Shown in pieces: positions 42,001 to 62,614 of a stretch of 64,000 nt of DNA. Under the pieces are notes generated by a model. It worked only from the letters and a program-made list of their open reading frames with translations, was not told where the DNA came from and made no database searches. Each line of letters starts with the position of its first letter. Position 1 is the stretch's first letter. Position numbers and translations under genes: made by a program. Origin of the DNA: a virus (lineage: Duplodnaviria > Caudoviricetes); IMG/VR virus record IMGVR_UViG_3300020463_000001, positions 32,001 through 96,000 of that record; one strand, given 5' to 3'.

Positions 42001-45000
42001 TTAGATAATGGCCAAAGAACTGGGATGTATGACATTGGAGATATTAAAATACAACCAGGCCAAAGCGAATGTGCTGGTCGAGTTGCAATCGTTTACTCTT
42101 ACTTTGATCATAGTACTGGAGGAGATTATTTCTCTGCAGATTCTTACACACACTCGACTTCTGGTATAGAATATTCACAGATACCAACATTTAAAGATAG
42201 TCGCTTATCCGATGTATTAGATTTTAGACCTAAGACTGTCAGTGCGGATTTATTTACTGAATATTCCCTAGCAACCCCCCTAAAGTTTGGCAAAGTGTCT
42301 ACTACTTCTAGCACGCCGCTGGATAACTCATATGTTATTGCAGATTATCGCCAGTATCTGCCAAGAAAGGATAAGGTATATTTGAGTAAAGAAGGAGATT
42401 TCTTAATAAAATATGGAGCTCCATCAATTTCTCCAAATTATCCAGAAGATCCAAATGACGGCATGGTTATCTATAAACTCGCAACGGATCCATACAGTCT
42501 AGGGACAGAAAGCATAACTGCAGAGATGTTGGATAATAGACGATATACTATGAGGGATATTGGCAAGTTAGAAAAACGAATTAAGACTGTAGAATACTAC
42601 ACATCATTATCTTTATTAGAAAAAGAAACAAAAGATATGGATGTTCTTGATGAAAATGGTCTGGATAGATTTAAAAACGGATTTGTTGTAGAACCATTTA
42701 CAAGTCATAATATTGGGGATGTTTTTGATACTCAATATAATTGTGCAATTGATGTAGTAAATAAAGAACTTAGACCAGTTTTTAATCAAAAGAATACTCC
42801 CATGAATTTTAATCAGTCGGAATCGACTCTTTATAGTATCAAAGATGGGATGGTTATGCTGCCATATTCTTCGGCCGTTCTTGCGGGACAAGGCAAATCT
42901 TCCAAAACAGTTTCGGTCAATCCATACGCGATAATGGGATTTAGGGGTTATGTTAAACTATTCCCAGAGCAAGATGATTGGAAAGACACTAATAGGGGCA
43001 ATGGTTCTCAAAATGGAGGCGTAGGAGGAGATTTAAATTGGCCTCCTTATGAATCGGATGAAGATGATGATTTGAGTGATGGTTCTCCAAAGGGATCTAG
43101 ACCAGAACAAAATTTCTTTATTAGAGAAAGAAACGTATTTTTCCATGCATCTGGAATGAAACCAAAGACAAGAGTATTTGCATACTTTGATGGAACTCCT
43201 GTATCACAATTTTGCATAACCACAAAAACTATCAAAGTTACTGGGGTATCTTCTGCAGATAATTTTATTCAAACATATGAATCAGAAATTATTGACAATA
43301 CTGGGGATATGACTCTGGTGAACAATCAGGGCCATGAAGTTAGAGTAGTGGGAATTCAGTACGTTGACGCAAGTAGTTTAAATTTTTATGTGATTGACAA
43401 TATCGACACAAACACTTTCACTGCCGGACAGGCTGTATTCTTAGTCGGGCCCAATTTTACCAACGGAATATCGCCAGGCAAATTTGCCTTAGAGACTGGT
43501 TCTAATAGTTCAACTCTAGTTACTGACGAATCTGGAAACTTAAGGGGTTTATTCGCAATACCAAATACGGAAGAAATGAGGTTTAGAACCGGAGATAAAA
43601 TATTCAAATTGTCCGATCAACAATCCAGTACAGCTTTTAGTCAAACAGAGGCAGAAGGACTTTACTCCGCAAAGAGTAAATTAGACTCTTCAAGTTCTAC
43701 TAGACAGGAAAGATATAGTTCTCAGTTCGTTCAGAGTAATGGTTCGGTAAGAAATCAAATTGGTGAAGGATCTAATCAATTTAATCCTATTGCACAAACG
43801 GTCATGACAGACAAGATTGGAGGAGCATTTCTTACATCAGTAAATATTTTCTTCTCATCAAAAGATTCGGTTATACCAGTAAGTGTAGAATTGAGAAATA
43901 CAGTTGGGGGGTATCCGGGCAAGACAGTTCTTACTAGAAAAACTTTATATCCTTCTAATGTATTGACTTCTTCTACCGGAAATCTTGCAACAAACTTTTT
44001 ATTTGACGCTCCAGTTTACATAGAACAAGGAGTAGAATATGCAATAGTCGTTTTGGCAGATTCGCAGGATTATAGTGTTCATGTTGCAAGACTTGGTGAA
44101 AATTCTCTAGATGGGACTGGAACTATTAGTAAACAACCATATAGTGGAGTATTCTTTAAGGCGGCATCAACTTCTTGGGCACCGGAACAAATGGAGGATA
44201 TGAAGTTTACTCTGTTTAGAGCTCAGTTTAATACTTCAGTAAGTTCTACATTATATTTTGAGAATAAGGGGACGGATAAGTTAGGATATCCTTCGAATAC
44301 CGTTCAGTTAGGAACATCTTCTATCGAAACATTCGCTGGATCTGACAATGTTCGATTTCATGTTCCCAACCACGATTTAGTATCTTCTGGTGGGTCGAAT
44401 ACACATTACTATGTGACTATTGCCGGACTCAATTCAAACGCAAGATATGGGGGAGATACAAATACAAACGCATGGTTGGGGTCTGAATTGAATGGAACTC
44501 ATGAAGTAGTTGCTACTACATTAAACACTTTCGATATATTGATGACCAATGTCAAATATGTCGGAGGAAACAGTATTGCAGGGACATCAAAGGCTTCTAC
44601 TCTTGCATCATCAGGAAGATTTAATCCATCTCCAGATTCTTCTGGGAAAGTTACTGCAGAGGTGAACTCTAAGTTTGATGTTTTAGTTCCTATAATACAA
44701 ACATTGCAATTACCACAGACAAATGTCACCTATTCGATGAAGACTACCAGCGGACAGTCCCAAGACTCAGATATGCCGACTGGCGTTAAAGATAGCTCTT
44801 GGACTAATTTTGTTCCAAATAAAGATATATCTTTCGATACCCCAAGAGCAGTGTATTCCCCATATAACGAAAATAATTTTGGAACAGGAAGCAGTAATTT
44901 TGAGAAAAAATCTCTTGCGTATAAGTTGACACTATCATCAACGCAAGATAATATATCTCCAGTAATTGATACCCAAAGGTTTAGTTCTACATTAATATCT

Positions 45001-45459
45001 AATGTGGTAAATTATCCCATATGGACTACGAATACAGATTCACAAGGAAATTCTACTGATACTTCTTCTAATTATACAGATTTTATATCGGAAAGACAAA
45101 ATACTGGAGGAACCGTAGAATCTAAGTATATTACTAGAGAAATACAATTAAATCAACCGGCAACATCATTTAAAATTGTGTTAACAATGCATCGCCCTCA
45201 AGATGCAGATGTCGATTTGTATTATAAGTTAAAAACTAGTGATAGTCAAGACTATCGAAAATTGAATTATGAATACATTTCTAGACCAGAGGGATACTCC
45301 CAATCTTCTATAGGAGTAGATCAGTTTACAGAATTTGATTATGATGTTAAGGGCCTAACTGAATTTTCATCATTTGGAATTAAGATAGTAATGCGAAGTA
45401 AGAACTCTGCATTGCCACCTAGAATAAAAGATTTGAGGATTATCGCTCTTGCGAACTAA
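39001..45459 (+). CDS. VrlC-like (DUF4815) large baseplate/structural protein
   Basis: NFNVTPYYDDY...ILFKPG.SVQARELTQIQSILQ, APGADRY, LARRTYDESGDY, RRYTMRDIG.LE.RI..EYYTSLSLLE. Confidence 0.88.
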   Translation: MASNFNVTPYYDDYDVNSGYLKILFKPGNSVQARELTQIQSILQQQIANVSDHFFKEGAMIIPGQSAIDTDITFLKIGYQDNSVTYNSAADFVGRVVVGSTTGIRALVVHAENATGSTDTDDPDTLYVKFISGADVSDYSSVDFVEGDSISFLPEEVLTTESISSMSDYACEVKPSSDTSIGKGSVAFIESGVYYLQKHLVMVNDQKIVLDKYSNKPSYKIGLQVNEAFVTSNMDNTLLDNAQGTTNFNAPGADRYRISLVFSKRSIDEVDTSNFIELISVRNGVVESHVRTTEYSVLEETLARRTYDESGDYTVRPYQIDVRELLNENGNRGVSTLSDFEFTNEVDAKEMARTRFFDEPDMIDLATGNGQAHTATPNDRTKYPEQNLDSTGTIFYPGKTHDSLVSALRGRLAIGIEPGKSYVRGYELETLVTQFVDYKKSRDHIQKNNEYLTTKLGNFVYLTDVMGLPIPNQTVDLLNINVAGNTHVKIDDDPTFNASDGSTSEGKSTYDKNQISADFSTWSSNNPIGSDVIGTAKIRYVEHYAHDQDSDYLSANFAPGVSNDDSAIYKVYLYDIKMEINPRTNREYLLNDLRSIESQSVAGAFNLFNGNILVEYTLVDQLSTFDNKNIVYSEYQDSLVRGVVYHSSSNKILVKTLGAGNPTSVAVGELNPRLFESNEVIREVEYDTTPENAFSGSVNHDIGLTPNNARVISRNVIFNTSGSSIIDTGSDFVKTIRFVDDDSGNSSVDTSYTVQMKFENVSQAYGGSGSQVELTLGTNSNQIFGSFNEKYYFAYTPTTGSGEPVVHKLTSDNVVLSTDGNNRVTTALVSIEDLSAGNNVVVYAPVIKTNAAEKTKTLVENQVIFPYSARKTDGTFVASETYAANPSSTWYSLDLYGTNNTGSVFNSNTTDSLGNSLALTSIQLEHSDIFELTAVYDTCTVSNVIYQIDSVGTKKFYNEMTAAELKFALDAYLEYEETGVNPTGFADVPVKIVDITDRYTLDNGQRTGMYDIGDIKIQPGQSECAGRVAIVYSYFDHSTGGDYFSADSYTHSTSGIEYSQIPTFKDSRLSDVLDFRPKTVSADLFTEYSLATPLKFGKVSTTSSTPLDNSYVIADYRQYLPRKDKVYLSKEGDFLIKYGAPSISPNYPEDPNDGMVIYKLATDPYSLGTESITAEMLDNRRYTMRDIGKLEKRIKTVEYYTSLSLLEKETKDMDVLDENGLDRFKNGFVVEPFTSHNIGDVFDTQYNCAIDVVNKELRPVFNQKNTPMNFNQSESTLYSIKDGMVMLPYSSAVLAGQGKSSKTVSVNPYAIMGFRGYVKLFPEQDDWKDTNRGNGSQNGGVGGDLNWPPYESDEDDDLSDGSPKGSRPEQNFFIRERNVFFHASGMKPKTRVFAYFDGTPVSQFCITTKTIKVTGVSSADNFIQTYESEIIDNTGDMTLVNNQGHEVRVVGIQYVDASSLNFYVIDNIDTNTFTAGQAVFLVGPNFTNGISPGKFALETGSNSSTLVTDESGNLRGLFAIPNTEEMRFRTGDKIFKLSDQQSSTAFSQTEAEGLYSAKSKLDSSSSTRQERYSSQFVQSNGSVRNQIGEGSNQFNPIAQTVMTDKIGGAFLTSVNIFFSSKDSVIPVSVELRNTVGGYPGKTVLTRKTLYPSNVLTSSTGNLATNFLFDAPVYIEQGVEYAIVVLADSQDYSVHVARLGENSLDGTGTISKQPYSGVFFKAASTSWAPEQMEDMKFTLFRAQFNTSVSSTLYFENKGTDKLGYPSNTVQLGTSSIETFAGSDNVRFHVPNHDLVSSGGSNTHYYVTIAGLNSNARYGGDTNTNAWLGSELNGTHEVVATTLNTFDILMTNVKYVGGNSIAGTSKASTLASSGRFNPSPDSSGKVTAEVNSKFDVLVPIIQTLQLPQTNVTYSMKTTSGQSQDSDMPTGVKDSSWTNFVPNKDISFDTPRAVYSPYNENNFGTGSSNFEKKSLAYKLTLSSTQDNISPVIDTQRFSSTLISNVVNYPIWTTNTDSQGNSTDTSSNYTDFISERQNTGGTVESKYITREIQLNQPATSFKIVLTMHRPQDADVDLYYKLKTSDSQDYRKLNYEYISRPEGYSQSSIGVDQFTEFDYDVKGLTEFSSFGIKIVMRSKNSALPPRIKDLRIIALAN

Positions 45460-47667: not shown

Positions 47668-49557
47668 ATGCCCATACAAGTACCAAATTCCAATGGCACA
47701 TTCAGTGACCTAAAAGAAATTTATGTCGGAAGAGATTCGATATCTCAAGTTTATTCTGGCAGTGATTTGGTATGGGCAAAAGATATTACGCAAGTAACTT
47801 TGCCTAATAGTACGAACTATAATACTAGTTTAAGAAAAAATTGGTTAGCCTATGATCAATGGAGAAATGAAACTGGAAAATGTTATTTTCAAATTAATGG
47901 TTGGGCAATTAATGAAATACAATGTCAGAATAAAAGTGTAGGAAACTTTAGCACTAGTTCGGGAGATGGAGTTTCTAGTAATAGTACATTCGAAACTAAT
48001 TATAAATCAAGCAATTACTTTACTCATGGAGGAAAAGATTATACCATTATAAAAGATCTTTCAGTTATAAATGGATATTTCCCTCTTACCTTTACATTTC
48101 AGACATATTGTCTGGGTAGCCCATCAGATAATAATATTAATAATTTATTTTTTATCACTACTGCAAATTCTACTTCAAATGGTCGATTGGATAAAGATCA
48201 AAGTATTGCATCTAATACTCCGTTGATAGTCAATCAACCGACTAACAGAATTGAACTAGATGATGTATATCTTTTACCAAACGATAATAGTCAAAGGAAT
48301 TTTACTATTGGTCAAAAAAATAGGTCAGGCACTTATAGGTTAGCTAACTATGAGGGGAGGAATCCACAGAATTATGATGTAAGACCACTTCCTTGGAAAC
48401 AAGGTAATGCCATGAATAGTGTTGGTGATGCAAATATAAATTCTCAGAGCGGAAGGGTTATTATTCTCGCTAATGACAGTGGTTTGGATGCATCAAGAGG
48501 TTTTAGAGATAATACTACAGACTACTGGGAAGGAACTTCAAATCCAGATCAATTCTCTTTTAACACTCAAATTTCTGTAACAATGATGGCAAAAAAGGAC
48601 GATTGGACGGATAAAGACATATCCTTCGTTCAAATATATTCTCGACAGGGCTCTGGTAGCAGACCTTCTTCGGAATTAGATTTTAATGATATAAAATTTA
48701 TGCAAAAAGTAAATTTCTGTCTATTAACTGAAAGTCAATATGTAGATAAAGTTTCTTCTAATAAGTTTACCAGAATTGTGCGGTCGAATTTACAATCATA
48801 TCCTCAACTTTCATTGCCAAAAACATCAGATAATTCTGTCAGACTGAGGTGGGAACCAGCTGCGCCGGAACCAGACACTGCTGGCACTACTCCTTCAGTC
48901 AGTACTCCTGTTGTAACCGAAACGGAGGATATTGTTTCTACATCAGATGTTAGATATATTACAAATAAATATACTCCCGTTGATGACAATTCTATCCAAT
49001 CCGTTACGATATCATTTCTTCCCGATGGATTTATTGAACTACAGGGCATGGCGAAAAAATCAATCTTATTTTCTGGCAACAACGCCAACAATAGAATAAT
49101 TGGAGGATCGACTATTGTAACTGTGAGTAATAAATTCAAATGGCATGAGGATGCTGGAACTTCGGCAATGACTGGGACTTACGAAGCTAAGGCAAGGCTT
49201 ATATCTGGCAAAAGAATTACTATGGCAGATAATCAATATAAGAAAATGACGATTGGTGGGAGTCAGGCAGTATATAGACTTTTCAGCAACGAAGAAGTAA
49301 AGACCCGGCTTCACATTGAAATTAGGAATGCTGATACTAGAGAAATAGTTGCGACTTGGAACCAAACTCTAGAGCTCAAATTGGATCCAGATAATAATAA
49401 CACTTCTAGTAATACAAATACTACAACCGAGTCTACTATCGCGGAAGATAATACTCAACAAGAAACTACTCAACAAGGAAAGTGGGTTCTTGTTCCCAAT
49501 CCAGATCGTGCATACCCCGATTTAGTATGGGTGCCAACTACGAAGGCACCTTCGTAG
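47668..49557 (+). CDS. putative fibre-tip adhesin / receptor-binding protein
   Basis: N-terminal IYVGRDSISQVYSGSDLVW, beta-rich body, P/T linker. Confidence 0.6.
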   Translation: MPIQVPNSNGTFSDLKEIYVGRDSISQVYSGSDLVWAKDITQVTLPNSTNYNTSLRKNWLAYDQWRNETGKCYFQINGWAINEIQCQNKSVGNFSTSSGDGVSSNSTFETNYKSSNYFTHGGKDYTIIKDLSVINGYFPLTFTFQTYCLGSPSDNNINNLFFITTANSTSNGRLDKDQSIASNTPLIVNQPTNRIELDDVYLLPNDNSQRNFTIGQKNRSGTYRLANYEGRNPQNYDVRPLPWKQGNAMNSVGDANINSQSGRVIILANDSGLDASRGFRDNTTDYWEGTSNPDQFSFNTQISVTMMAKKDDWTDKDISFVQIYSRQGSGSRPSSELDFNDIKFMQKVNFCLLTESQYVDKVSSNKFTRIVRSNLQSYPQLSLPKTSDNSVRLRWEPAAPEPDTAGTTPSVSTPVVTETEDIVSTSDVRYITNKYTPVDDNSIQSVTISFLPDGFIELQGMAKKSILFSGNNANNRIIGGSTIVTVSNKFKWHEDAGTSAMTGTYEAKARLISGKRITMADNQYKKMTIGGSQAVYRLFSNEEVKTRLHIEIRNADTREIVATWNQTLELKLDPDNNNTSSNTNTTTESTIAEDNTQQETTQQGKWVLVPNPDRAYPDLVWVPTTKAPS

Positions 49558-49599
49558 TTGGATCAGTCGTATAACATAGGATGTAAATAGAGATATAGT

Positions 49600-51576
49600 A
49601 TGGCAATAAAATTAATAAACAGTCTTAACGATTTGCCTAATTATGGTGTTTCTGTGTCTAGATCTGGGTTTACCAAACTCACAGATACTGGAGGAATCGA
49701 TAGCACTGGAGCAGTTTCTGGCGTGGGTCTCATGATGACTCTTGCATCAGATATGACTGCCAGCTGGCAACTATATAATGGAGATTCAACTCCAGACAAT
49801 AAAATACAATTGGTCGGTGTCGGAGATAATGCGAATACTGATGTTACTAAACAATTTTTTAATCAGTTGCCTATCAATTCTCAGACGTATTTCGGTCAAG
49901 CAAACTTCGGGCCAGTGGGAAATTTAAGACAACACGTTTTACTATTCGAAACAACCAACGAAATATTACCAAATCGCGGATCAGTATCTAGAGGAGTCGA
50001 TCAATCATATAGAGTAAGATTTGAATTTGATGAACGCCCCAGATTACATACAACAGATGTTGAATTTAATAGAGAACTGTATCAGTTAAATTTAAGACTG
50101 AGGTCTATGGGAAGAGCGCAGTATGTTGTCGGGTCTCAAATAAACGAAACCTCGACTTCGCAACATCAACTAGAAACCACTAAAGATGCAGATAATAATT
50201 TAGTTCATACTGGTTATACGTTCAACGGCACTTGGGCGGTATCCGATGGGATACCAAATTGTATGTATGGATGGATGAAAATTAATGTAGGTACATCAAA
50301 TCAACTTTTGAACAATGGAACTGTATTAGAATCGATATCGGGTAACGATGGTCTTATCACCCTAGAAAATGGATCTACTCTTACTACATCAGTTGTACGA
50401 ACTCCGGGCGAATTGGTAGATCTTCATTTTGAAGATGTGGTGATACCAGCACAATCTCTCGTTTTTCCATACGATGGTATTAATCAATATTCAGTGGGAG
50501 AAGTTATTTCTGGGCCTGGCGGAGCATCTGCTACTGTTCATAGTGTATCGACATCCTCTACAACTCAAAGTGTTACTTTTTCTGATTGGAATAACATCGA
50601 TTTTGATGAGGGGGAAACTATTACTGGCGCAAATAGTTCTTTGTCTCTTTCTTTAACTCTTGTTACTACACAAATAAATAGAAGTAAGAGATTTAGAAAT
50701 AAGAGAAAGGGAAAGGGTTGGTTCAAGAGATTTCCTAAAATTGGAACAAATCTTGAAGGAACTTATCCCATGTCATATCGATTAACTATGACAGAACGGG
50801 GATTTGTTTTATATATGTTTGATGATGCTGCCAGTGATCAATCAGATGATTATGCTTGGACTTGTGTTCAAAGAACTGTTGATAATACAGAGGGAACTAC
50901 GCCGTCAGACGAATCTACCAGATTTCCTGTCCATGTTCTATATTCTTGTTCCAGAGAAAGTGTATATGCGAGAGATTTCGGTGTATATTTCTCCGAGTCT
51001 GCCGCAAACCTTCAAACTGCAGAAACTGCAGTTAACAGTGTTTTTGATAATGAGGGGAATCAGTACACAGTAGATAGCCTAGGAAATGATAGTTTTTATA
51101 TTTTAAGTCCTTACGATAGAGAAGATTCTCTTGCAGATGAATTTACTGCAAAACTTATCTGGCGATTTGTTGCGAGAGAATTTGATATATTAAAACCTTG
51201 GGATGTTCATAAACTTGCGACTAAACACCAGACCGACAGTAATGCGATTATAAATCCTCTAGAACAGTTAGCAATCACTAACGACAATAGATTTGTAATT
51301 ACATTCCCAACTGGTTTGACAACGCAAAGATTTATGTATCCGAAAGAAGAAATAGACCTCATATGTTTTTCTTCTGCGGAGGTTGTGGCTGAAGGAAGTA
51401 ATGTTCCTATGAATACATATCTTCCTTCTGGAAACGCAGACAATAGAAGATATCAGGGAATGAGGTCAACTCTTGCTAATGGAAATGGCATGAGAATTAT
51501 GTTATTAGTGAACGGAAGACACATCTTTAACAGTGATGTTAACATTGGAACAGATACTTCCGCAAACTTAATTTAA
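49600..51576 (+). CDS. unassigned family, paralog 1 (658 aa), probably structural
   Basis: Shares ordered motifs with the next two ORFs. Confidence 0.75.
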   Translation: MAIKLINSLNDLPNYGVSVSRSGFTKLTDTGGIDSTGAVSGVGLMMTLASDMTASWQLYNGDSTPDNKIQLVGVGDNANTDVTKQFFNQLPINSQTYFGQANFGPVGNLRQHVLLFETTNEILPNRGSVSRGVDQSYRVRFEFDERPRLHTTDVEFNRELYQLNLRLRSMGRAQYVVGSQINETSTSQHQLETTKDADNNLVHTGYTFNGTWAVSDGIPNCMYGWMKINVGTSNQLLNNGTVLESISGNDGLITLENGSTLTTSVVRTPGELVDLHFEDVVIPAQSLVFPYDGINQYSVGEVISGPGGASATVHSVSTSSTTQSVTFSDWNNIDFDEGETITGANSSLSLSLTLVTTQINRSKRFRNKRKGKGWFKRFPKIGTNLEGTYPMSYRLTMTERGFVLYMFDDAASDQSDDYAWTCVQRTVDNTEGTTPSDESTRFPVHVLYSCSRESVYARDFGVYFSESAANLQTAETAVNSVFDNEGNQYTVDSLGNDSFYILSPYDREDSLADEFTAKLIWRFVAREFDILKPWDVHKLATKHQTDSNAIINPLEQLAITNDNRFVITFPTGLTTQRFMYPKEEIDLICFSSAEVVAEGSNVPMNTYLPSGNADNRRYQGMRSTLANGNGMRIMLLVNGRHIFNSDVNIGTDTSANLI

Positions 51577-51592
51577 GTGATGAAAAAAGTTT

Positions 51593-51600
51593 TATAAATA
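51593..51600 (+). promoter_or_regulatory. late promoter TATAAATA
   Basis: Upstream of paralog 2. Confidence 0.75.
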
Positions 51601-51636
51601 GTCAGATAAGTAAAATATGTCTCAAAGGAGAAAATA

Positions 51637-54600
51637 ATGCCTGTTGCAAGTGGATATAGTATTCAAAGAAATGAAATCATTAATATACCTCATCGTCAGC
51701 AATATGAAACCCATTCTGCTGAAGGTACAAAGAACCAGTTTTTCTTGAGGTCTAAGATTGATTTCGCAAGTAAAGATTGGGAGTGGAGCATCAAAGTTGG
51801 TGGTGTTCGCTATGATTTAGACAGAACAATCTCTCCTGCCTCTGTTACAAATGGAGGAAACTCCCAAAGAAATGCTCAGGGAGTTTCAGCGGCCAGCGGT
51901 ACTGCTTCTGGTAAGACTGACCAAGCAATTTGGGATTCTTCTACGGAAACCTATGCAGAAGGAGATACTGTTTCTGGATCTGGCGCGGTAAAGTTTGATC
52001 AGAGTCTTGGTGTATTCGGGGGCATCGAATTCGCACCAGAGTATACTCCATCCGGCAACGAAATCCTAGAGATTACATATCAAGAACATGAAACTCAATG
52101 GACTGGTTCCAGAGGCGGACTTCTTTTCCAACTTGCAAGTGATATGTGTATCCATCCGTATGATTCTCCAGAGATATTCAAGTATATGGGTTCCGCTAGT
52201 CCAATTGGACTTTCAGAGTCTTTTAGTGAGGACTTTAGTGAGAACCCAGCAACTAACACTGCTCAAGCGATTGAGGATGCTAGAAAAACTGCAAGAACTC
52301 CTAATGCGGTTTACAAACTTATTAGAGAACACTCAGTAACATATTCGGCTGTAGATATATCGGACTCAGATCCGTCCAACATTACTCCAAAAACATTAAC
52401 TAGTGATTTCCCATTTTCTATTGCTGATTTAGGAGACGGAGAATTCCGAGTATCTATTGCAGGAAGAGTTATCCAAGATGAATACTGGTCTGTTGAACAA
52501 AACTCAGATCGTTCTGTAACCATTAAGTTATTGGTTGCTTCTTCTGAATTCAACTGGGTATCTGACGCAAGTTCCGTCGAAGTTATTGTAGGTTTTCACT
52601 GGAAGCATTCACTCGCAGTTCCATTTGGTGCAAAGTTTGGGCCATTCGATCCTGACGGCGGACAAATCACATATACCAACCCGTCTTCTGGAAATAGAGC
52701 AACTATATTATTTTCTGATCTTGTCGATGATACCGATCCAGATAATCCGGTTGCGACTGGACTTAACACTGGTAAAACTCAATCTGCAGACTTAGATTTT
52801 ATCAAGTCAGGAGATCTGTTCCTACTAGAATTCAAAGATGACGAACAGTTTATCCCTGCGTTTAATCTGATTCACCCCAAACCAGTAAGTAATTCCAAAG
52901 AAGATGTTCTTGCTGCACTGAAACAAGTCACTACAAAATTTCTTGTAGAATCCGCAAGAGGAACTGACTTGCTATCAGATGACGAATTGACTCCGATCTC
53001 TACCGATCCAACATCAAATAAGACCAAACCACAAAACTGGAGAATTCGTTTTGAGTATAGTGGTGATGGTGCTCAGATTAAGGTCAATGTTGCAACAGAA
53101 TATCAACTCCTTGATGACATGACAATTACGCAAGGGCAAGGAAGAGATGGTGCGAAATATCCCATCTACAGAGAGCCGGGCGAATTATGTGATGTTTACC
53201 AAGAACCAAGTATTGGTCGAGGTGTTGTCACCAGAATTCAAAAGGCCAAGTCACAATTCTTTACAAGAGTTTCTAAATCTGAGGATGAGGTCGCAAGATC
53301 ATATCCAATGTCATATAGAATGACAGTAACCGACCACGGCATGGGATTGTTCATATTTGACCAAGCGTCAGTAGACCAAGATGATGATTATTCTTGGTTC
53401 GTTGTACAACGTCATGTTGATCAATCTACTGGACAACCAGAATTCTCAGGTAAGTCTCCTGTACACTGTGTATACTCGCCAACAAAACGACCAGTAGAAA
53501 TTAGTGATTTAAACACATATTACTCAACACAAGATGTTGCAGATCTTTCTAAGCCAAGAAATATCTTCGATAGTTTTGGTAGAGAATTAGAAACAGAAGC
53601 TCCTACAATCTTTGTAAATAGAGATCAGAGTTTCTTTAATGACTTTGTGAACGCAATTGACTTCACAGGAACATACGCTATTCCAGAAACTTCTGGTGGT
53701 CAATCGGTGTATAAAGATGAACTAGATGTTGGTTTTATCGGCGGTGCGGATGTCAGTGATGATATCGCAATACTATATTGGAATGATGGAGCAAGCGATC
53801 CCAAACCAATAAATGAATTACAAATTTTAGGATTTGAGAGATTAGGAAGATCTGGACAAGGAACAAATATCGGAAGGGTGGCCAATACTATTGGGCCATT
53901 TGCTACGGCGACAGCACCGTCTGTTTCGATTAATTCTCAAAATGGTGCAAGTTGGCAGACAAACCCAGCACAACAGACTGGAACACAACTTTCTGGAAAC
54001 GTAACATTCCCAGTTTCTGCATTAGAAGCAGTTTCTAATTTTGAAGATGCTACTAGTCAAACTCCGGGCCCGACTGCTACTGCTCCTGCAACTCTTTCAG
54101 ATTGGGACGATCCATCTTATGCACTCTTAGATATCCTCTTCAACGAAGTATCTGCAAACAGAGAAAAGGTATTTGAAAGTTTAGTAGTTGCTCTTGACGG
54201 AGTAGAAATCCTACGAGATCCTAACGCATATGTCCTTACATATGACGAATGGGTACGAAATGGAGATCCATCAACAGTACAAAGATTCTTAGAGGGTCTT
54301 GATAATGCTGGTGTTAAAAATTTTGGAACTAGCTTTAAGTTGCCGGAAAATTCTAGCAATGTCACTGCGAACTTTATCACTAACATTGGGAATGCGAAAA
54401 ACGAATCTAAGAGTACCAGTAGTCAGTCTGGAGACGATTATGATACTGACTTTGTAACTAATATACAAGGTCTAAATACAACAGCCTATCTAGTAATTTC
54501 TACAGATTCTGTTGGGTTGAGAGGTAAATTGCCAGGAGATCCAATCTTCTCAGATTACGGAACATCTCAGCTGAACTTGACTGCAGGGCCCAACAGGTAT

Positions 54601-55308
54601 CTGTATGACTTCTTCAACCAGACTCTGTACTTTAGAGACACACCAAGATCAGGTTCTTCGTTCTCTATGAAGTTGGTGAACTATAACTCATCTACTCCAT
54701 CACAGACCACATACATTGTGACGGTTCCGCCGGATAGAGATCTTCCGGATCGTAACCAAAACTCTGTTAAGACTATCAACAGGTTTATCGTAAGAGAAAG
54801 TGATGTATTGAAACCTTGGGATTATCATACTTCTGCAACAATGCATGAGGCAGATTCTAACTCAATCATCAACCCACAAGAGCAGTTGTCAATCACTCAG
54901 GATAGGGATTTCGTATTTAGTTTCCCAACTCAGTTGACTTCTCAGAGATTCTATTATCCTAGAAGTGAATTAGACTTGATTGCGATTTCTTCTGCTGACT
55001 TCTCTACACAGGCTGGTCACATTGAAATTGACAAGTATTCTGACTCTGACGGAAAGAACGGAACTCTATTTGTTGGCGCTAATCAAGAAGGTATCAATCC
55101 TACTGGAATTTCTGATAGTGCTGGGCCATTTAGGTTTGCAGCGCATACCGGGCCAGACAACAGACAGTACATCTGGAAGAAGAATAAGAGGAAGTATGAA
55201 GGTATGATGAGTACAGAACCAAATGGTAACGGTATGAGAGTGTTCTTACAGGTTACTGGTTCTAGTGTACGTTATAGTGATGTTACCGAAGGTGAAGCTC
55301 CAGCATAA
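51637..55308 (+). CDS. unassigned family, paralog 2 (1223 aa)
   Basis: YPMSYRMTVTDHG, WFVVQRHV, KSPVHCVY, VRESDVLKPWD, IINPQEQLSITQD, GNGMR. Confidence 0.8.
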   Translation: MPVASGYSIQRNEIINIPHRQQYETHSAEGTKNQFFLRSKIDFASKDWEWSIKVGGVRYDLDRTISPASVTNGGNSQRNAQGVSAASGTASGKTDQAIWDSSTETYAEGDTVSGSGAVKFDQSLGVFGGIEFAPEYTPSGNEILEITYQEHETQWTGSRGGLLFQLASDMCIHPYDSPEIFKYMGSASPIGLSESFSEDFSENPATNTAQAIEDARKTARTPNAVYKLIREHSVTYSAVDISDSDPSNITPKTLTSDFPFSIADLGDGEFRVSIAGRVIQDEYWSVEQNSDRSVTIKLLVASSEFNWVSDASSVEVIVGFHWKHSLAVPFGAKFGPFDPDGGQITYTNPSSGNRATILFSDLVDDTDPDNPVATGLNTGKTQSADLDFIKSGDLFLLEFKDDEQFIPAFNLIHPKPVSNSKEDVLAALKQVTTKFLVESARGTDLLSDDELTPISTDPTSNKTKPQNWRIRFEYSGDGAQIKVNVATEYQLLDDMTITQGQGRDGAKYPIYREPGELCDVYQEPSIGRGVVTRIQKAKSQFFTRVSKSEDEVARSYPMSYRMTVTDHGMGLFIFDQASVDQDDDYSWFVVQRHVDQSTGQPEFSGKSPVHCVYSPTKRPVEISDLNTYYSTQDVADLSKPRNIFDSFGRELETEAPTIFVNRDQSFFNDFVNAIDFTGTYAIPETSGGQSVYKDELDVGFIGGADVSDDIAILYWNDGASDPKPINELQILGFERLGRSGQGTNIGRVANTIGPFATATAPSVSINSQNGASWQTNPAQQTGTQLSGNVTFPVSALEAVSNFEDATSQTPGPTATAPATLSDWDDPSYALLDILFNEVSANREKVFESLVVALDGVEILRDPNAYVLTYDEWVRNGDPSTVQRFLEGLDNAGVKNFGTSFKLPENSSNVTANFITNIGNAKNESKSTSSQSGDDYDTDFVTNIQGLNTTAYLVISTDSVGLRGKLPGDPIFSDYGTSQLNLTAGPNRYLYDFFNQTLYFRDTPRSGSSFSMKLVNYNSSTPSQTTYIVTVPPDRDLPDRNQNSVKTINRFIVRESDVLKPWDYHTSATMHEADSNSIINPQEQLSITQDRDFVFSFPTQLTSQRFYYPRSELDLIAISSADFSTQAGHIEIDKYSDSDGKNGTLFVGANQEGINPTGISDSAGPFRFAAHTGPDNRQYIWKKNKRKYEGMMSTEPNGNGMRVFLQVTGSSVRYSDVTEGEAPA

Positions 55309-55355
55309 GGAGTTCCCCCTTCGTAATATCTCATAAATAATATAAAGAGGAAAGT

Positions 55356-58300
55356 ATGTCTTCGACTTTGAATTATCCATTTAAGTCTTCCGGATTTTCA
55401 GTACAAAGAAATGAAATACTTACTGTTCAACCTCCTTATTATACTCACCTATTACAAGGAGATGGGACATCAACTTCGTTTCCAGTTTATGCGGAAGAAG
55501 GAAAGAAACCAAATCTGAACTTATCAGACGTTCAGCAGTTTCGCGTGTTTCAAAACTCTGTCAATGGGCCAGAATATAGTTTAGATAATATAACTGGCGA
55601 TTCTTCTTTCTCAAACAACGGCGAATTCTATTATACTCCTCCGCAAACTTCAGATGATTCTGATAACGGAACTATAACATTTAGAACTGCTCCAGCTGGA
55701 GGATTAAAAATTCTAGTTCAATACTTTCCTGTAGTTAACTCAGGAAATGCTGATCCAGCAGGAATTCTTCAGAGTCTTGCGAAAGATTTAACATTACATC
55801 CATATCGAAATGATTTCTCTGAAGCATGGTCATCTAATCAACAGAAGAAATCTACTGCCACCATTAATCTTGCAACTAATTTTGTTGAACAGTCAGGAAC
55901 CATAACAGTAACTGATTCTGATGGGGCCTCAGTCAATTTTGATGCAAATGATGTCGGAAAAAGAATTAGAGAGAAATATGGATCTGGTATGTTTGTGATA
56001 GATTCTGTTACAGATAATGTTGCAAATATAACTGTAGTATCACCAAAGTCCGATTCCTCTACGACTTCTTATACAGAGGGAGAGTGGATGTTAATAATTC
56101 CTAGCTCTGATGTAGAACCTCAAGCATATAATATTATTTATCCGAGAGTACAAGATTCTGATATTACACATCCATCAATAAATTTTGATGGACAACAAGA
56201 TCACACCTCAGTTATGGATTGTATCAGAAGAATCGGGTCTGTATTTGTAGTAGAATCGGAAAAGGGAACAGACATTCTTTCCTCACTAAAAGACATTGAT
56301 TCTTCTAATACATTTATACCTACTACTGCCGTTGCTTCTCAAGTCGCACAGGAAAATCGAACACCACAAAAATGGAGAATGAGATTCTTTTATGATACTA
56401 GAGATGAATACATTCATGTAAATATTGGAACTAAATTTCAAATAATGGACGATGGAGATATATCTCAAACAGTAGGCAGGGATGGCATAACATCTGGCCC
56501 CACAAGAAATCCCGGCGAACTTTCCGATGTATACTATAAGTTTGACGAAAGAGGAAATAAAGCAAAATCTGGTTTTTATAGAAGACAAGGAAAGACTGAT
56601 ACAAATATCGCTGGAAGTTATCCTATATCATATCGACTTACTTGTTCGGATCATGGTACTGCGTTTTTTATCCAAGATCAAGCATCTATAGACGATGATG
56701 ATTATGCATGGTTTGTTGTGCAACGTCATGTCAATAATATTTCTGGTAAAATAGATCTGGAAGACGGAAAGTCTCCCGTTCATTGTGTCTATGCACCCTC
56801 TAAGCGTCCCACAGAGGCGTCCGATTTTAACATGGGTTTCTATGCATCATATTCATCACAAACCTTTGCTAACGGAAAGACAGTCATTGAAACAACAGAT
56901 TTGGGCCCAATCTTTAAAACTGATGGAACTCAACTAACACCAGAGACACCAATACAATTTACCATCGTTACTGACAAAGATCCAGTAGCAGTTTCTTCTG
57001 CAGGAACATCATACTATAGAGGAACAAGTTATAGAATCCCTCCTAGTGATTACGATCCAATTCACGAAATCAATATTGCAGATTATGCTTTGGGTTCTGG
57101 AAACTATGCACTTCCTCTTGGATCTAATTATACTACAAAGGGTGTTTATAACAAACTTATGCCACCCGATGTGGGACTTAATACTGCAGGCGATATGTTG
57201 GGATATCCAATTGGTCAGACAGGAACTCCAACTCCCAACGCACCAACTGATGCGATAGAAACTGCAGATCAGGAATTTGCGGTCATATCTTATGCATCAG
57301 CAGCAACATCTGGTATTCAATTATCTAATCCGGATGGGCTTAAATATGTCCCTAAAAAATTAAATACATTAAGTCTTTCTAGACAAGAACAACTGGGCCC
57401 AGCAGAATCTGGGTTATCTCCATATCAAGTTCAAATTTTCGACATTGATTCTGGGGGAAGTAATGGGTTAGCCGATCTTGTCGAAGGAATAGATTATAAT
57501 ATTGTAAAAGAAAATGATGAATACTGGTACTTTCAATTTGTCACAAAAGATACGGATAATATCATTCCTAATGCATACATATCTGATCTTGTTGAGGGCC
57601 CAAATATGCCCGGCGCAAATTCTTCCAATCCTAAATCTTTATCTAGGATGGGGTGGTATGATTCTTCTGGCATTTTAGTCGAACCAAGAAATGTTCTATT
57701 AAACGGGGCAATCATACCAAGCTCGCATTATACTATTGATCAGGAAATAAACTTCACAGTCAAGGTTGCGGCTTTTAATATTCCGGCAGGGTTCGCCTCT
57801 GCAGATCTTACTTTTGATAATGGAAATAGAACAGCATCTGGAGTATCTGTAACACAGACCGGAACACAAGGAGAGTTTGCAGTTTCTGTAGTAGTTAATG
57901 AATCAGACTCGACACCTTTCCCAATAGGTTCCAGTGTTATTATGGAAGACTCTGGAAACACTTATACGTTTATTGTTGACGAAGTTTCTACAACTATGGT
58001 AATAGATCCGATATTTAAATATGTTAGGGGCGATACTGTAGTACTTGGTAATAGTGATGTACTAGAAATTAAATCTTATTTCAGTCCAGAGAATACAAAG
58101 ATTATTTTATCTTATGTTTGGAATGGGGCTGGTTATCAAAACAAATATATCAATCCATTTGGAGGTTCATCACAAATAAGATCACAAACTCAGATTAAAC
58201 CTCTTTATGAAGTTAATAGGTTAGATGTTTTTGTAAATGGAGTAGAAATTAATTCTTCTCCGTATCCAAATGGGTATTTTATAGAATCTGATGGTGATGT

Positions 58301-59117
58301 AACATTTAGAGATATAAGTTTGAGTTTACAAAACGAATATGTCTACTCTATGCCTCAGGATACAATATATATTAAGAATGATTTAGTGAAGGGAGAACAA
58401 CTCAAATTCTCTTATGAAAATTATAATTCTGCAGAGGAAACGGACTCTTCTGCAGCATCTTATTTGTTGGAAATACCAGAAGATAGAGATATACCAAGTG
58501 CTTGGTCTAATTTGCACAAAGATACAATTGCAATATACAGATTTGTTGTGAGAGAAGATGATGTTCTTAAGCCTTGGGATTTTCATGTGTCTGCGATAAT
58601 TCCACAAATAGATAGTCCAGCTATTATCAACCCACAGGAACAATTGTCAATCACTCAGGATAAGACTTTTGTATTTACATTCCCTTCTCCTTTGACAACT
58701 CAGAAGTTTATCTATCCAAACTCTGAAATGGATTTACTGTGTTATTCTGGTGCAAGTTCATCTACCCTTGGAGGATTCACTAGTATTGGTACTGCAGCGT
58801 CTCCTAAATACGATCTGGATGGAAAACAAGTAAGTCTTGCAACTGACATCACTGGATCTTACAGTCTCGACAACGGAATTGGAGTTGCGCCTAGCGCATC
58901 ATCTGCGGGGGATTATACTTCTGCGAGTGGTGATGTTCTTAACTACAGAGACATATATTCTTGGCACACCGGAACTGACACATCAACAACTTCTGCATCT
59001 AGATCTTATGTGGGTATGCAATCTACACAAAGTTATGGAAACGGCATGAGAATATTCGTTCTAGTAAGAGGTGGGCCAATCAATCCTATATATTCGGATT
59101 TTGTTGTTAGGACTTAA
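55356..59117 (+). CDS. unassigned family, paralog 3 (1253 aa)
   Basis: Same motifs in the same order; CATAAATA at 55332. Confidence 0.8.
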   Translation: MSSTLNYPFKSSGFSVQRNEILTVQPPYYTHLLQGDGTSTSFPVYAEEGKKPNLNLSDVQQFRVFQNSVNGPEYSLDNITGDSSFSNNGEFYYTPPQTSDDSDNGTITFRTAPAGGLKILVQYFPVVNSGNADPAGILQSLAKDLTLHPYRNDFSEAWSSNQQKKSTATINLATNFVEQSGTITVTDSDGASVNFDANDVGKRIREKYGSGMFVIDSVTDNVANITVVSPKSDSSTTSYTEGEWMLIIPSSDVEPQAYNIIYPRVQDSDITHPSINFDGQQDHTSVMDCIRRIGSVFVVESEKGTDILSSLKDIDSSNTFIPTTAVASQVAQENRTPQKWRMRFFYDTRDEYIHVNIGTKFQIMDDGDISQTVGRDGITSGPTRNPGELSDVYYKFDERGNKAKSGFYRRQGKTDTNIAGSYPISYRLTCSDHGTAFFIQDQASIDDDDYAWFVVQRHVNNISGKIDLEDGKSPVHCVYAPSKRPTEASDFNMGFYASYSSQTFANGKTVIETTDLGPIFKTDGTQLTPETPIQFTIVTDKDPVAVSSAGTSYYRGTSYRIPPSDYDPIHEINIADYALGSGNYALPLGSNYTTKGVYNKLMPPDVGLNTAGDMLGYPIGQTGTPTPNAPTDAIETADQEFAVISYASAATSGIQLSNPDGLKYVPKKLNTLSLSRQEQLGPAESGLSPYQVQIFDIDSGGSNGLADLVEGIDYNIVKENDEYWYFQFVTKDTDNIIPNAYISDLVEGPNMPGANSSNPKSLSRMGWYDSSGILVEPRNVLLNGAIIPSSHYTIDQEINFTVKVAAFNIPAGFASADLTFDNGNRTASGVSVTQTGTQGEFAVSVVVNESDSTPFPIGSSVIMEDSGNTYTFIVDEVSTTMVIDPIFKYVRGDTVVLGNSDVLEIKSYFSPENTKIILSYVWNGAGYQNKYINPFGGSSQIRSQTQIKPLYEVNRLDVFVNGVEINSSPYPNGYFIESDGDVTFRDISLSLQNEYVYSMPQDTIYIKNDLVKGEQLKFSYENYNSAEETDSSAASYLLEIPEDRDIPSAWSNLHKDTIAIYRFVVREDDVLKPWDFHVSAIIPQIDSPAIINPQEQLSITQDKTFVFTFPSPLTTQKFIYPNSEMDLLCYSGASSSTLGGFTSIGTAASPKYDLDGKQVSLATDITGSYSLDNGIGVAPSASSAGDYTSASGDVLNYRDIYSWHTGTDTSTTSASRSYVGMQSTQSYGNGMRIFVLVRGGPINPIYSDFVVRT

Positions 59118-59132
59118 ACCTTAATAAATTAT

Positions 59133-59166
59133 CATAAATAAAAGGAGGCTTGTGTCTCCTTTTTTT
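59133..59166 (+). terminator. terminator hairpin overlapping late promoter CATAAATA
   Basis: AAAGGAGGC-TTGT-GTCTCCTTT followed by a T-run. Confidence 0.6.
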
Positions 59167-59182
59167 ATATCCAGAGAACCCG

Positions 59183-62100
59183 ATGGCAGATTTTAAAACA
59201 ATATTTTTATTTGAAGATTATGTCGCTACGGAGATTGGCGCACAACCTCAATCTGTCGGATCGAATGAAATTTTAGTTTCCGGCTTGGATGATTCCGTTG
59301 TACTGGTTTTTCAAAATGGATTTATGTATGTTGATGATATTTTCTGGGGAAATATCGTATCCGTACAAAATGGCGATAGGCTACGATTACAAGTTAATCA
59401 TCAAGTTATAAACGAACCAGTAGAATATGAAATACTGGTTCTAGAAAGATCTTCTGGGTTTGTCTTTGAGGTCACTGATTCCTTTACATGGAATGTGGAA
59501 ATAAATGATCCTCTGGCAAATGAACCGGCAAAATTTTCAACACAATCTTCCACCGACGAAAATAATAGAATATCAGACATTCTGACATCTATTGTTGCTT
59601 CGAGTTTATCAGAAGCGATTACTGCGAATAGAAGTTCTGCAACCTCTACATTGGGCCAAATAGAACCAGAATTAATTCTAGAAGTTTTACAAAAGGCTGG
59701 ATTTATAGAAACAGATACTTCTGGAGAAATAGATTTAAATTCTCTAAGTCAAGTATTTGACAGCTTTAGAGAAATTATAAACGATACCTCTAGAAATATT
59801 GTAGAAGATATTTTATCCGACGAAACTCTAATACAACAATTCACTTCAGATGCTGAAGAAAATTTAATAGTAGACATAGAAAATACTTCAGAACAATTAA
59901 AAGAATCATTCACAAATAGATTGAACGAAATGTTTTCTGAAGTATCAGAAACTACTTCCGTACAAACTACAGATACAGATGAAACTCAAGACATTTCTGC
60001 AATAGATTCTACTACTATTGCAGAAGAATCATCAATAACTTCAGAAACGACACAAATAAATGTTTCTGAATTGGTAGAAGAAAAAACACAAACACTGACA
60101 GAAACAAAAGAAGTATTACAATCAATTCAACAATCTGTGGACGAGAGTTCTGATGATGCGGATTTGTCTCAACAGGCGTTTGCAGAATTCTTAGAGTCAA
60201 CTGAAATTAATGATAAAGTTCTTGGAGAACTTTCTGAGTTAATTGATTTACAAGATCCAAAACCAATAGATGAATTAATTGAGAATGTTGAACAATCTAT
60301 ACAAACATTCCAAGATTTACAAGAAATAGAACAATCTAATCCTCAAGTATTTGTAGATATTCAAGAAGCACTAGGAATTAATGTAGATCCACAGTTTGAT
60401 GAAACATTAGATATCATACAAGAAAATACCCAGTTATTTGGTGAGTTGGATGATCTAATACAAACTAATTTACAATTATTCCAAACCTCATTAGAAACCG
60501 ACAGGTTTGAAGCGAAATCTTTCCATGAAATAAGGTCAATAGGTTTCAGAACTATAGATGAATTTAGTGATAGGTTGTTTGCGGAACGATCAGAAATAAT
60601 AGATGTATTGACAAAATTAGTTTCTGAATTTATAGAAGAAGCCCTGATAAAAACCTTAGTCACTGCTGAAGAAGAATTATTAGTCGATGCACTACAGAGA
60701 TTGTTTGGAGAAGAACAAGAATCCTTTGATTTAGAAACTATAAGAAGAACAGAGATAACAGACATAGATGATGTCTTCGCAAAAACTTTAATAGAAGAAC
60801 TAGAAAAACAATCAGAATTTCAATATGATTTAGCAGAGACAACTCTCTTAGATACTCTGGTCAATCTCAATATTGTAAGTTTCGTAGAAACATTCCTAGA
60901 GAATGTTCAAAATCTAATAGAAGATACTGATAAGGTTCAGTTACTAGATCAAACCCTTATATCAGAACTAGAAAATAATTTTGAAAGTTTAATAATAGAA
61001 TCATCTTTTGATGATATAATTGACGAATTGAAGGCCTTAGATTTTACTGAAGATGTCCCAGAGATACAGGATCTATTGAGGTTTGTATCTACAGAAGAAA
61101 GTGAATTTGTAGAAAATATTTTAAGATTATTTGATACCGACGATTCAATCAGTGGCGAATCTATAATAGAAGATGAAACTACCGAGAGTGTCACTGGAGA
61201 AGAATCAAGAGAGGAGGAAACTGACTCTATTGTTTCTGGAGAAGATTCTATAGGAGATGAAACCGACGAAACAATTTCATCATCCGATGTAATAGGAGAC
61301 GAAAGCACTCAGACTGTTACTGGAGAGGAAGAACGCGAAGAAGAATCTGATTCTACTATCTTCGGAGAAGATATTATAGGAGATGAGTCTTCTACCACAA
61401 CAGAAGGTACGGACACTGTTGGAGAAGACACACAATCATCTCAATTAGCAGAAGACGAATTAGGAGAAACTTCTCCAGAGATTGTAAACGCAGAACAAGA
61501 AGTAATAGATACAGGAGATTCTTCAGATGTTTCAGAACAAGAAGTAGTCGATACTGGTGATTCTTCAGATGTTTCAGAGCAGGAAATAGTAGATACTGTT
61601 GCTCCTCCAGATAACGCAGTAGATCCAATATCTGATGTTGGTATATCTTCTGATGAAAGTTTAGAAGAATCCTCCGATACTGTTGCTCCTCCAGATAACG
61701 CAGTGGATCCAATATCTGATGTCGGGTTATCTTCTGATGAAGCAGAAGAAGAAGCATCCGATATATCAGATCCAGCAGATGAAGTATTGGAAGATGCTCC
61801 GGATGTGTCTATATCTCCAGAAGATGCGATAGAAGTTACAGAAGACACTGCGATATCTTCAGATGTCGGTGAGGTAGATCCAAATGACACTGGCGATTCG
61901 GCAGATCTTGGTGAAGTTCAGCCAGATGACACTGGTGATTCCGCTGATGTCGGAGAAGTAGATCCGAGCGACACTGGGGATTCTGCTGATGTCGGAGAAG
62001 TAGATCCGAGCGACACTGGGGATTCTGCTGATGTCGGAGAAGTAGATCCAAATGATACCGGAGACTCTACTGATGTTGGTGAAGTAGATCCAAGCGACAC

Positions 62101-62614
62101 TGGTGATTCTGCTGATGTTGGTGAAGTAGATCCAATAGACACCGGAGACTCTGCTGATGTTGGAACAGAACAACCAACAGATACTGGAGATTCTGCGGAT
62201 GTCGTTGAAGAAACACCTTCTCAAATCGGCGATTCTACCAACGATTTTGAAGAAGACCCATCTATCGTGGGCGATTCTACAGATGTAGTCGAAGACGATC
62301 CAACAAACATAGGAGATTCTTCCGATGATGTTGAAGATGAAGTAAGTGAAATAACAGATGAAGCAGACGAAACTGAAACTGACGCAGGAAATATTAGTGA
62401 TGGTGCTGGTGAATCAGAGACTCCGTTAGACAATGCAGACGACGGACAAGATCCAGATGAGGTGAACGATGACTTTGAAACAAAGGGAATCATACAACTC
62501 CGAGACGGGACGATGACATTTTATAAACTAAGACCATTCAGAATCGCAACTTCTGATCAATTCATTGGGCCATTTATAGATAGACTTGGAATAAGTAGGG
62601 ATATAAGGTTATAA
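59183..62614 (+). CDS. very acidic large protein with a 14-aa repeat region
   Basis: ATG 59183 within track ORF 59150..62614; D/E-rich throughout. Confidence 0.8.
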   Translation: MADFKTIFLFEDYVATEIGAQPQSVGSNEILVSGLDDSVVLVFQNGFMYVDDIFWGNIVSVQNGDRLRLQVNHQVINEPVEYEILVLERSSGFVFEVTDSFTWNVEINDPLANEPAKFSTQSSTDENNRISDILTSIVASSLSEAITANRSSATSTLGQIEPELILEVLQKAGFIETDTSGEIDLNSLSQVFDSFREIINDTSRNIVEDILSDETLIQQFTSDAEENLIVDIENTSEQLKESFTNRLNEMFSEVSETTSVQTTDTDETQDISAIDSTTIAEESSITSETTQINVSELVEEKTQTLTETKEVLQSIQQSVDESSDDADLSQQAFAEFLESTEINDKVLGELSELIDLQDPKPIDELIENVEQSIQTFQDLQEIEQSNPQVFVDIQEALGINVDPQFDETLDIIQENTQLFGELDDLIQTNLQLFQTSLETDRFEAKSFHEIRSIGFRTIDEFSDRLFAERSEIIDVLTKLVSEFIEEALIKTLVTAEEELLVDALQRLFGEEQESFDLETIRRTEITDIDDVFAKTLIEELEKQSEFQYDLAETTLLDTLVNLNIVSFVETFLENVQNLIEDTDKVQLLDQTLISELENNFESLIIESSFDDIIDELKALDFTEDVPEIQDLLRFVSTEESEFVENILRLFDTDDSISGESIIEDETTESVTGEESREEETDSIVSGEDSIGDETDETISSSDVIGDESTQTVTGEEEREEESDSTIFGEDIIGDESSTTTEGTDTVGEDTQSSQLAEDELGETSPEIVNAEQEVIDTGDSSDVSEQEVVDTGDSSDVSEQEIVDTVAPPDNAVDPISDVGISSDESLEESSDTVAPPDNAVDPISDVGLSSDEAEEEASDISDPADEVLEDAPDVSISPEDAIEVTEDTAISSDVGEVDPNDTGDSADLGEVQPDDTGDSADVGEVDPSDTGDSADVGEVDPSDTGDSADVGEVDPNDTGDSTDVGEVDPSDTGDSADVGEVDPIDTGDSADVGTEQPTDTGDSADVVEETPSQIGDSTNDFEEDPSIVGDSTDVVEDDPTNIGDSSDDVEDEVSEITDEADETETDAGNISDGAGESETPLDNADDGQDPDEVNDDFETKGIIQLRDGTMTFYKLRPFRIATSDQFIGPFIDRLGISRDIRL
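61139..62482 (+). repeat. 32 x 42-nt (14-aa) register, core unit DSADVGEVDPSDTG
   Basis: Protein parses into unbroken 14-mers from DDSISG to DDFET; near-identical DNA copies around 61870-62200. Confidence 0.85.

Follow-up and report, generated by a model that had tools for sequence, protein, structure and literature searches.

Introduction

To our knowledge, nearly all fibres and spikes of known phages are trimers. A recent exception is the siphophage JBD30, whose baseplate carries three bent arms that grip the type IV pilus and that are made of stacked globular bricks, with three gp47–gp48 heterodimers, mutually rotated by 180 degrees, in each arm (PMC11445458). The two proteins of the heterodimer, gp47 and gp48, have similar folds (PDB 8rk3; Valentova et al. 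2024, PMC11445458). Here, we compare with this system three tandem genes encoding proteins of 658, 1223 and 1253 amino acids (P0001, P0002 and P0003), found in a DNA stretch of 64,000 nucleotides (hereafter the window), i.e., bases 32001–96000 of the IMG/VR virus record IMGVR_UViG_3300020463_000001. This 200,733-bp record has direct terminal repeats and belongs to a distant, uncultured marine T4-like phage. We consider it moderately likely that the three genes, together with a fourth paralog outside the window, encode late virion proteins that build an appendage of the tail or baseplate, in which self-associating bricks would display large and fast-evolving domains on their loops.

Four paralogs with a common core

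The three open reading frames (ORFs) all lie on the + strand, at exactly the positions given by a first-pass annotation of the window, which had regarded them as three members of an unassigned family. Both parts of the latter statement have to be revised, as a whole-genome family search recovered a fourth paralog (P0063) beyond the window end, 10 kb downstream of the triplet, and all four proteins match PHROG 12249 (E 3.9e-49 to 6.3e-35), a family carrying the doubtful label “tail sheath” (see below). The hidden Markov model (HMM) that we built for the family recognizes the four of them with E values from 7.8e-124 to 4.7e-88.

49600..51576, + strand: paralog 1, P0001, an ORF of 658 amino acids with a core and four modest insertions (PHROG 12249, E 3.9e-49)
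51637..55308, + strand: paralog 2, P0002, 1223 amino acids (PHROG 12249, E 6e-45; family HMM, E 9.9e-102)
55356..59117, + strand: paralog 3, P0003, 1253 amino acids (PHROG 12249, E 6.3e-35; family HMM, E 4.7e-88)
record positions 101390-107386, 5.4 kb past the window end: paralog 4, P0063, 1998 amino acids (PHROG 12249, E 1.4e-37)

Pairwise BLASTP comparisons align P0002 with P0003 over two collinear blocks (E 3e-52 and 1e-43) and P0001 with P0002 at E 2e-36 and 1e-19. The three ORFs of the window are thus true paralogs, well beyond chance, as had been proposed from their ordered motifs split by unrelated insertions. A four-way alignment has 73 invariant columns, and the motifs follow each other in the same order in the four proteins: LA(S/K)D, WR.RF, (I/V)N(V/I).T..Q, R.PGEL, YP(M/I)SYR.T, DDY(A/S)W..VQR, PVH..Y, RF..RE.D.LKPWD.H, IINP.EQL, FP..LT.Q and GNGMR, separated by unrelated insertions whose length ranges from tens of residues to about 450. 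P0001 is the smallest of the expanded members, while large insertions interrupt the core of both P0002 and P0003; in the latter, the family HMM matches two core pieces (residues 332-533 and 1039-1248). In P0063, the first core element (the N-terminal core helix) occupies residues 12-63 and the remaining core residues 1532-2010, about 1470 residues being inserted at one site.

A predicted fold resembling JBD30 gp47

An AlphaFold (AF2) model of P0001, computed without templates from an alignment of 113 sequences including short forms of the family, reached a predicted local distance difference test (pLDDT) of 83.8 and a predicted template modelling score (pTM) of 0.85. A first model based on 28 close homologs had been poor (pLDDT 61), the conserved C-terminal block being left unmodelled, and its Foldseek search yielded a gp7-like barrel only. 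With the good model, Foldseek returned no row of the Protein Data Bank (PDB) at E 0.001 or better. Of the AlphaFold and Foldseek analyses that the first-pass annotation had proposed, the former thus succeeded for P0001, while the closest structural match came from another program: an exhaustive VIA-align search of the PDB aligned the P0001 model with JBD30 gp47 (8rk3_c/K) at Z 15.8 and a root-mean-square deviation (rmsd) of 3.8 over 267 of 317 residues. This match spans residues 17-638 of the model and was reproduced in a repeat search, and the next rows covering the core have Z 5 or less. JBD30 gp48 (8rk3_G) is matched more weakly, with a Foldseek probability of 0.84. The chains of 8rk3 were assigned by length, c being gp47 (318 amino acids) and G (305 residues) gp48 (307 amino acids).

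According to the model, the P0001 core shares its whole-chain fold with JBD30 gp47. Because the match extends from residue 17 to residue 638, the split core would in fact be one compact domain of about 320 residues, whose loops hold the insertions. Other searches were silent: phmmer and a profile HMM found no match among PDB sequences, and a shape search of the ESM Atlas gave TM (template modelling) scores of 0.35 or lower throughout.

The resemblance to the JBD30 system goes beyond the predicted core fold. The genes of gp47 and gp48 are adjacent paralogs, as are the three tandem genes here, and subunits are also predicted to pair in our family (see below). Moreover, relatives of gp47 have inserted domains too. 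Some of its homologs (P0275, P0281, P0293 and P0306), of 456-474 amino acids, contain a PA14 or an F5/8 type C domain, so that the insertion of sugar-binding-type domains is also a feature of the established brick family. The two systems differ in that gp47 and gp48 belong to another PHROG (phrog_687, without any match to 12249) and share no detectable sequence or profile similarity with our proteins, the core of which is interrupted by insertions of up to about 1470 residues. Hence our wording that the paralogs probably work like gp47 and gp48, as far as one model can tell, without being filed as members of that family.

One of the P0001 insertions resembles a known domain in its own right.

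50446..50679, + strand: small beta-barrel, an insert of the P0001 core at residues 283-360, with VIA-align likeness to a domain of the gp7-type wedge protein of the T4 baseplate

This barrel matches 9f4a at Z 9.4-9.5 (74 residues, rmsd 2.1) and T4 gp7 (5iv5_BJ) at Z 8.8, where it superposes on residues ~766-846 (Z 8.8-9.5 and rmsd 2.1-2.2 over the set of matches). The likeness to gp7 is limited to this single inserted domain, the rest of gp7 being unrelated, and barrels of this common type occur in translation factors too. Among P0001 orthologs, the barrel is the least conserved part of the protein (24% identity).

Predicted self-association of the core

Complex formation was predicted on a stand-in, a short tandem pair of family members (358 and 316 amino acids, each with its own alignment) from L016, a 278-kb metagenomic jumbo phage. 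The pair obtained a complex score of 0.79, versus 0.00 for the best of three controls. Of 80 solved complexes, 58 attained this score, as did two of 110 mismatched pairs, a calibration that is only rough, since own alignments were used here. Contact agreement between runs was at least 92% and partner pLDDT at least 89, and the model thus supports dimerization of the short pair. A solved complex of this kind does exist (8rk3), yet the L016 proteins have no sequence similarity to it, so that mere recall by the predictor seems unlikely.

The predicted interface is pseudo-symmetric, as it involves equivalent residues of both chains. It maps to the motifs IINP.EQL.IT.D and FP..LT.Q(R/K)F.YP, i.e., to the best-conserved block in every lineage of the family, which is also the stretch left unmodelled in the P0001 monomer from the shallow alignment. 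Transferred from the L016 pair, the putative interface blocks of the window proteins are the following, the corresponding block of P0063 covering residues 1884-1923:

51220..51339, + strand: predicted interface block of P0001, residues 541-580 (87-91% ortholog identity)
54838..54957, + strand: predicted interface block of P0002, residues 1068-1107 (76-88% ortholog identity)
58596..58715, + strand: predicted interface block of P0003, residues 1081-1120 (74-77% ortholog identity)

Extent, phylogeny and conservation of the family

A profile search of the family, a kind of check that the first-pass annotation had suggested, was run against 1.84 billion representatives and retrieved 378 clusters, in which many minimal proteins of 310-400 amino acids stand beside others of up to 2481. 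Tandem copies are usual (e.g., Lu11 gp246/247, the 358 + 316 pair of L016 and a triplet of 682, 1421 and 1500 amino acids in the related contig L014), most jumbo-phage records have family genes in two places, and the gene context is a tail module in every phage examined. The short members of jumbo phages (PaBG gp261, Lu11 gp246/gp247, Erwinia Y3 and the Dickeya JA phages), which are annotated either “tail sheath” or “hypothetical”, share family and motif order with the paralogs described here (family HMM, E 1e-103 to 1e-114; PHROG, E down to 7.5e-141) and are mostly arranged in tandem pairs. They differ in being minimal cores of 316-396 amino acids without large insertions. PHROG scans of the genes beside the short homologs in PaBG and L016 were uninformative.

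In a tree inferred from the core columns of the family alignment, the short forms (Lu11, PaBG, L016) compose a clade apart from an expanded marine clade (support 1.00). The latter comprises four lineages with good support, each corresponding to one paralog of the source genome, P0002 thus having an orthologous clade of its own. Because the three genes of L014 pair one-to-one with P0001, P0002 and P0003, the four paralog lineages are ancient, the duplications being older than the divergence of these phages and every copy having been retained. This retention of each ancient copy argues for distinct, non-redundant roles of the paralogs.

Conservation is very uneven along the proteins, ortholog identity reaching 74-91% in the core blocks versus 19-30% in the insertions, which are rich in indels. 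The two largest variable regions of the window occupy the same site of the core:

53554..54756, + strand: main variable insertion of P0002, ~residues 640-1040, between PVH..Y and RF..RE
56853..58475, + strand: main variable insertion of P0003, ~residues 500-1040, core site shared with the P0002 insertion

The P0002 insertion has 20-49% ortholog identity, except for an island at residues 841-880, along with many indels, while that of P0003 has 19-49% identity and gaps of up to 46%. Neither of them has a match in Pfam or among PDB sequences, and a feature search of the ESM Atlas with the P0002 insertion gave nothing usable.

One family member is a proven virion protein. When counted from Met5 (the fifth codon), the product of the PaBG gene has a mass of 34,777.74 Da, and band 10 of the CsCl (caesium chloride)-purified PaBG virions was reported as “gp261, Unknown”, with 34,778.16 Da (PMC7412058 Table 1). 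The neighbouring ORFs, of 57,162.23 and 18,908.23 Da, correspond equally well to the published masses of gp257 (57,162.97) and gp263 (18,908.47; PMC7412058), and the gene order agrees with the numbering gp257/gp261/gp263. The PaBG member is therefore gp261, by exact mass and gene order. It figures among the 14 proteins that Coomassie staining revealed in the CsCl-purified virions, and it is separate from the sheath.

Altogether, the earlier suggestion of a hetero-oligomeric virion appendage, whose conserved core displays variable domains, is partly borne out. The virion homolog of PaBG, the gp47-like fold, the predicted dimer of L016 and the contrast between core and insertions support it, but a heterotrimer is not indicated, since there are four paralogs rather than three.

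Genome setting

Homologs of the T4 baseplate proteins gp5, gp6, gp7 and gp8 are encoded at 29.8-39 kb of the window. The gp6 protein shares only ~35% identity with its counterparts in Methylophilales phage Melnitz, Pelagibacter phage HTVC008M and cyanophages, and a megablast search of the 9.5-kb triplet region against phage records produced zero matches. Downstream of gp8, the gene order continues with a DUF4815 protein of 2152 amino acids and two ORFs of 657 and 629 amino acids from no known family, which lead to P0001, P0002 and P0003. The triplet had been described as following the fibre genes, a role that has not been demonstrated for any of these three upstream genes. The DUF4815 giant (phrog_358) is located at 39001-45459 of the window, directly 3' of gp8, and the same giant is found upstream of the paralog triplet in L014, a case of conserved synteny.

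Although gp5 to gp8 have homologs, the Pfam domain T4_gp9_10_N (PF07880) has no match anywhere in the whole genome. The GP11 domain (PF08677) has no genome match either, an absence that is weakly founded, as the same search was also silent in all control genomes. The outer baseplate of the source phage thus seems to be made of parts other than gp9/10 and gp11.

Proposed appendage and alternative explanations

The appendage that we favour would work as follows. The family core of ~320 residues would serve as a self-associating building block, two subunits pairing through the pseudo-symmetric interface formed by IINP.EQL.IT.D and FP..LT.QRF.YP, and the pairs would pile up to form an arm or fibre that is not a trimer and is anchored to the tail or the baseplate. 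The loops of the core would hold outward-pointing insertions of up to ~1470 residues, which evolve fast from one related phage to the next and whose probable role is to bind structures on the host surface. Because the genome has no recognizable gp9/10 or gp11 domain, such an appendage could fill the part of the baseplate that these proteins occupy in T4. A stronger version, which we put forward only tentatively and regard as less likely than not, is that the four paralogs polymerize through the conserved interface into a defined hetero-polymeric, non-trimeric arm, which would replace the gp9–gp12 periphery of a T4-type baseplate. The exchangeable binding domains displayed by this arm would add up to several thousand residues.

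Several points weigh against this proposal. The link to gp47 consists of one predicted model compared with one cryo-electron microscopy entry, a comparison in which convergence and very deep divergence are inseparable, and P0001 is the sole paralog to have been folded. At the profile level, hhalign comparisons of the family with gp47 (alone and as an alignment of 40 sequences) and with gp48 gave probabilities of 0.1-0.2, i.e., no signal, while the phrog_687 profile finds nothing in the source genome. The settings also differ, JBD30 being a small siphophage with the two genes after the tape measure, whereas here four paralogs belong to a T4-type myophage, in a baseplate context. As for association, the complex was predicted for a pair from the jumbo phage L016 instead of the window proteins, and since its interface is pseudo-symmetric, the prediction does not separate homo- from hetero-dimers; PaBG apparently has a single family copy. 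Finally, the virion evidence comes from the PaBG homolog, the source phage itself being known from sequence alone.

If the same brick nonetheless underlies the whole family, i.e., hundreds of protein clusters of marine T4-like phages as well as the cultured jumbo phages PaBG, Lu11, the Erwinia and Dickeya phages and Atu_ph07, then a building principle so far known from a single siphophage structure would be common, and many giant “hypothetical” late genes would become readable as cores with plug-in binding domains. Should the hetero-polymeric arm also be real, brick-built fibres would be a second, widespread type of host-recognition architecture among marine T4-like phages and jumbo myophages.

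An alternative to the stacked appendage is that the paralogs are fixed parts of an enlarged baseplate periphery that replaces the gp9/gp10/gp11 network, with neither stacked arm nor fibre, the insertions acting as struts rather than as host-binding domains. Three observations suit this explanation: within the baseplate module, the paralogs come after gp6, gp7, gp8 and the DUF4815 giant; Pfam searches of the genome gave no hit for gp9/10 or gp11; and one P0001 insert resembles a gp7 domain. What makes struts unlikely to us is the behaviour of the insertions, which are the fastest-changing and most indel-rich parts of the proteins, as is typical of exposed host-interaction domains, together with the fact that the single relative by fold builds a projecting arm that binds the pilus (PMC11445458), in a family that likewise has inserted sugar-binding domains (PA14 and F5/8 type C).

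The database label leads to another alternative, namely extra tail-sheath subunits or sheath-coating proteins, which could explain the tail “hairs” of some related jumbo phages; judging from the title of reference 45 in PMC7412058, several carriers of the family belong to a group called “hairy Myoviridae”. Both PHROG 12249 and RefSeq name the family “tail sheath”, the latter in ~65 jumbo-phage records with PHROG 12249 homologs, and there is enough of the PaBG homolog in the virion for it to be seen as a Coomassie-stained band (PMC7412058). Yet P0001, P0002, P0003 and P0063 have no Pfam match even at E up to 1, sheath domains included, whereas the genome encodes a separate gp18 homolog of 684 amino acids (record positions 128093-130147), which features both Phage_sheath_1 (PF04984) and Phage_sheath_1C (PF17482) and adjoins a gp19-sized gene. 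The same holds for other carriers: L016 has its own sheath gene near the family pair, and the two experimentally identified sheath proteins of PaBG are gp213 and gp76 (58 kDa; PMC7412058), gp261 being the “Unknown”. Moreover, the best structural match is a fibre brick and not a sheath protein. The rows listed by the Foldseek PDB, VIA-align and BFVD searches with the P0001 model include no sheath chain, although absence from these rows does not by itself exclude such a fold, and the BFVD search found only family members (e.g., Atu_ph07 proteins). What the paralogs have in common with a gp18-type sheath is the label and, in general terms, a conserved core bearing insertions on its surface, and we regard a sheath role as quite improbable.

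The “tail sheath” label of PHROG 12249, spread into RefSeq, is thus very probably wrong, and the name on the jumbo-phage records looks like a propagated mis-annotation. As a side effect of this naming, the RefSeq records of Lu11, PaBG and the Erwinia and Dickeya jumbo phages have two or three apparent sheath genes. In PaBG, the product name contradicts the published virion proteome (PMC7412058).

Finally, virion proteins of another place or role (head or neck decoration, or an ejected protein), for which the gp47 likeness would be coincidental, agree with the missing sequence link to gp47/gp48 and with a location on the particle known by inference only, but are very hard to reconcile with a match that covers 84% of the gp47 chain at Z 15.8, no other row coming near it, with the tail-module context in every phage examined and with the tandem-paralog habit common to gp47/gp48.

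Late-promoter-like motifs and neighbouring genes

The first-pass annotation had assigned a late-promoter-like motif to each of the three genes, which holds for P0002 and P0003 but not for P0001, where only a one-mismatch variant is present:

51593..51600, + strand: T4-type late-promoter-like TATAAATA, exact box, 44 nucleotides upstream of P0002
55332..55339, + strand: CATAAATA, which fits NATAAATA, 24 nucleotides upstream of P0003
49582..49589, + strand: TGTAAATA, one-mismatch variant and weak promoter candidate only, 18 nucleotides upstream of P0001

Among the three paralogs of the window, P0002 is the only one preceded by the exact TATAAATA, which is also found at -60 of the fourth paralog P0063. 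Since NATAAATA is rare on this strand (0.28 per kb) and yet is found upstream of paralog genes, the fourth included, as well as of the gp18, gp19 and gp20 homologs, late expression of the paralogs is plausible from motif distribution.

Just before P0001, a perfect 13-bp inverted repeat (CCAACTACGAAGG / CCTTCGTAGTTGG, with a 2-nucleotide spacer) at 49534-49561 of the window overlaps the stop codon of the upstream 629-amino-acid ORF, and no T-run follows it; the corresponding hairpin may be RNA-stabilizing or terminator-like. On the other side of the triplet, the next gene (59150-62614) encodes a hyper-acidic protein of 1154 amino acids, with long 14-residue repeats rich in Asp, Glu and Ser. Its listed TTG start is probably wrong, the ATG at 59183 (MADFK...) being likelier, and a further copy of CATAAATA lies upstream of this gene, at 59133-59140.

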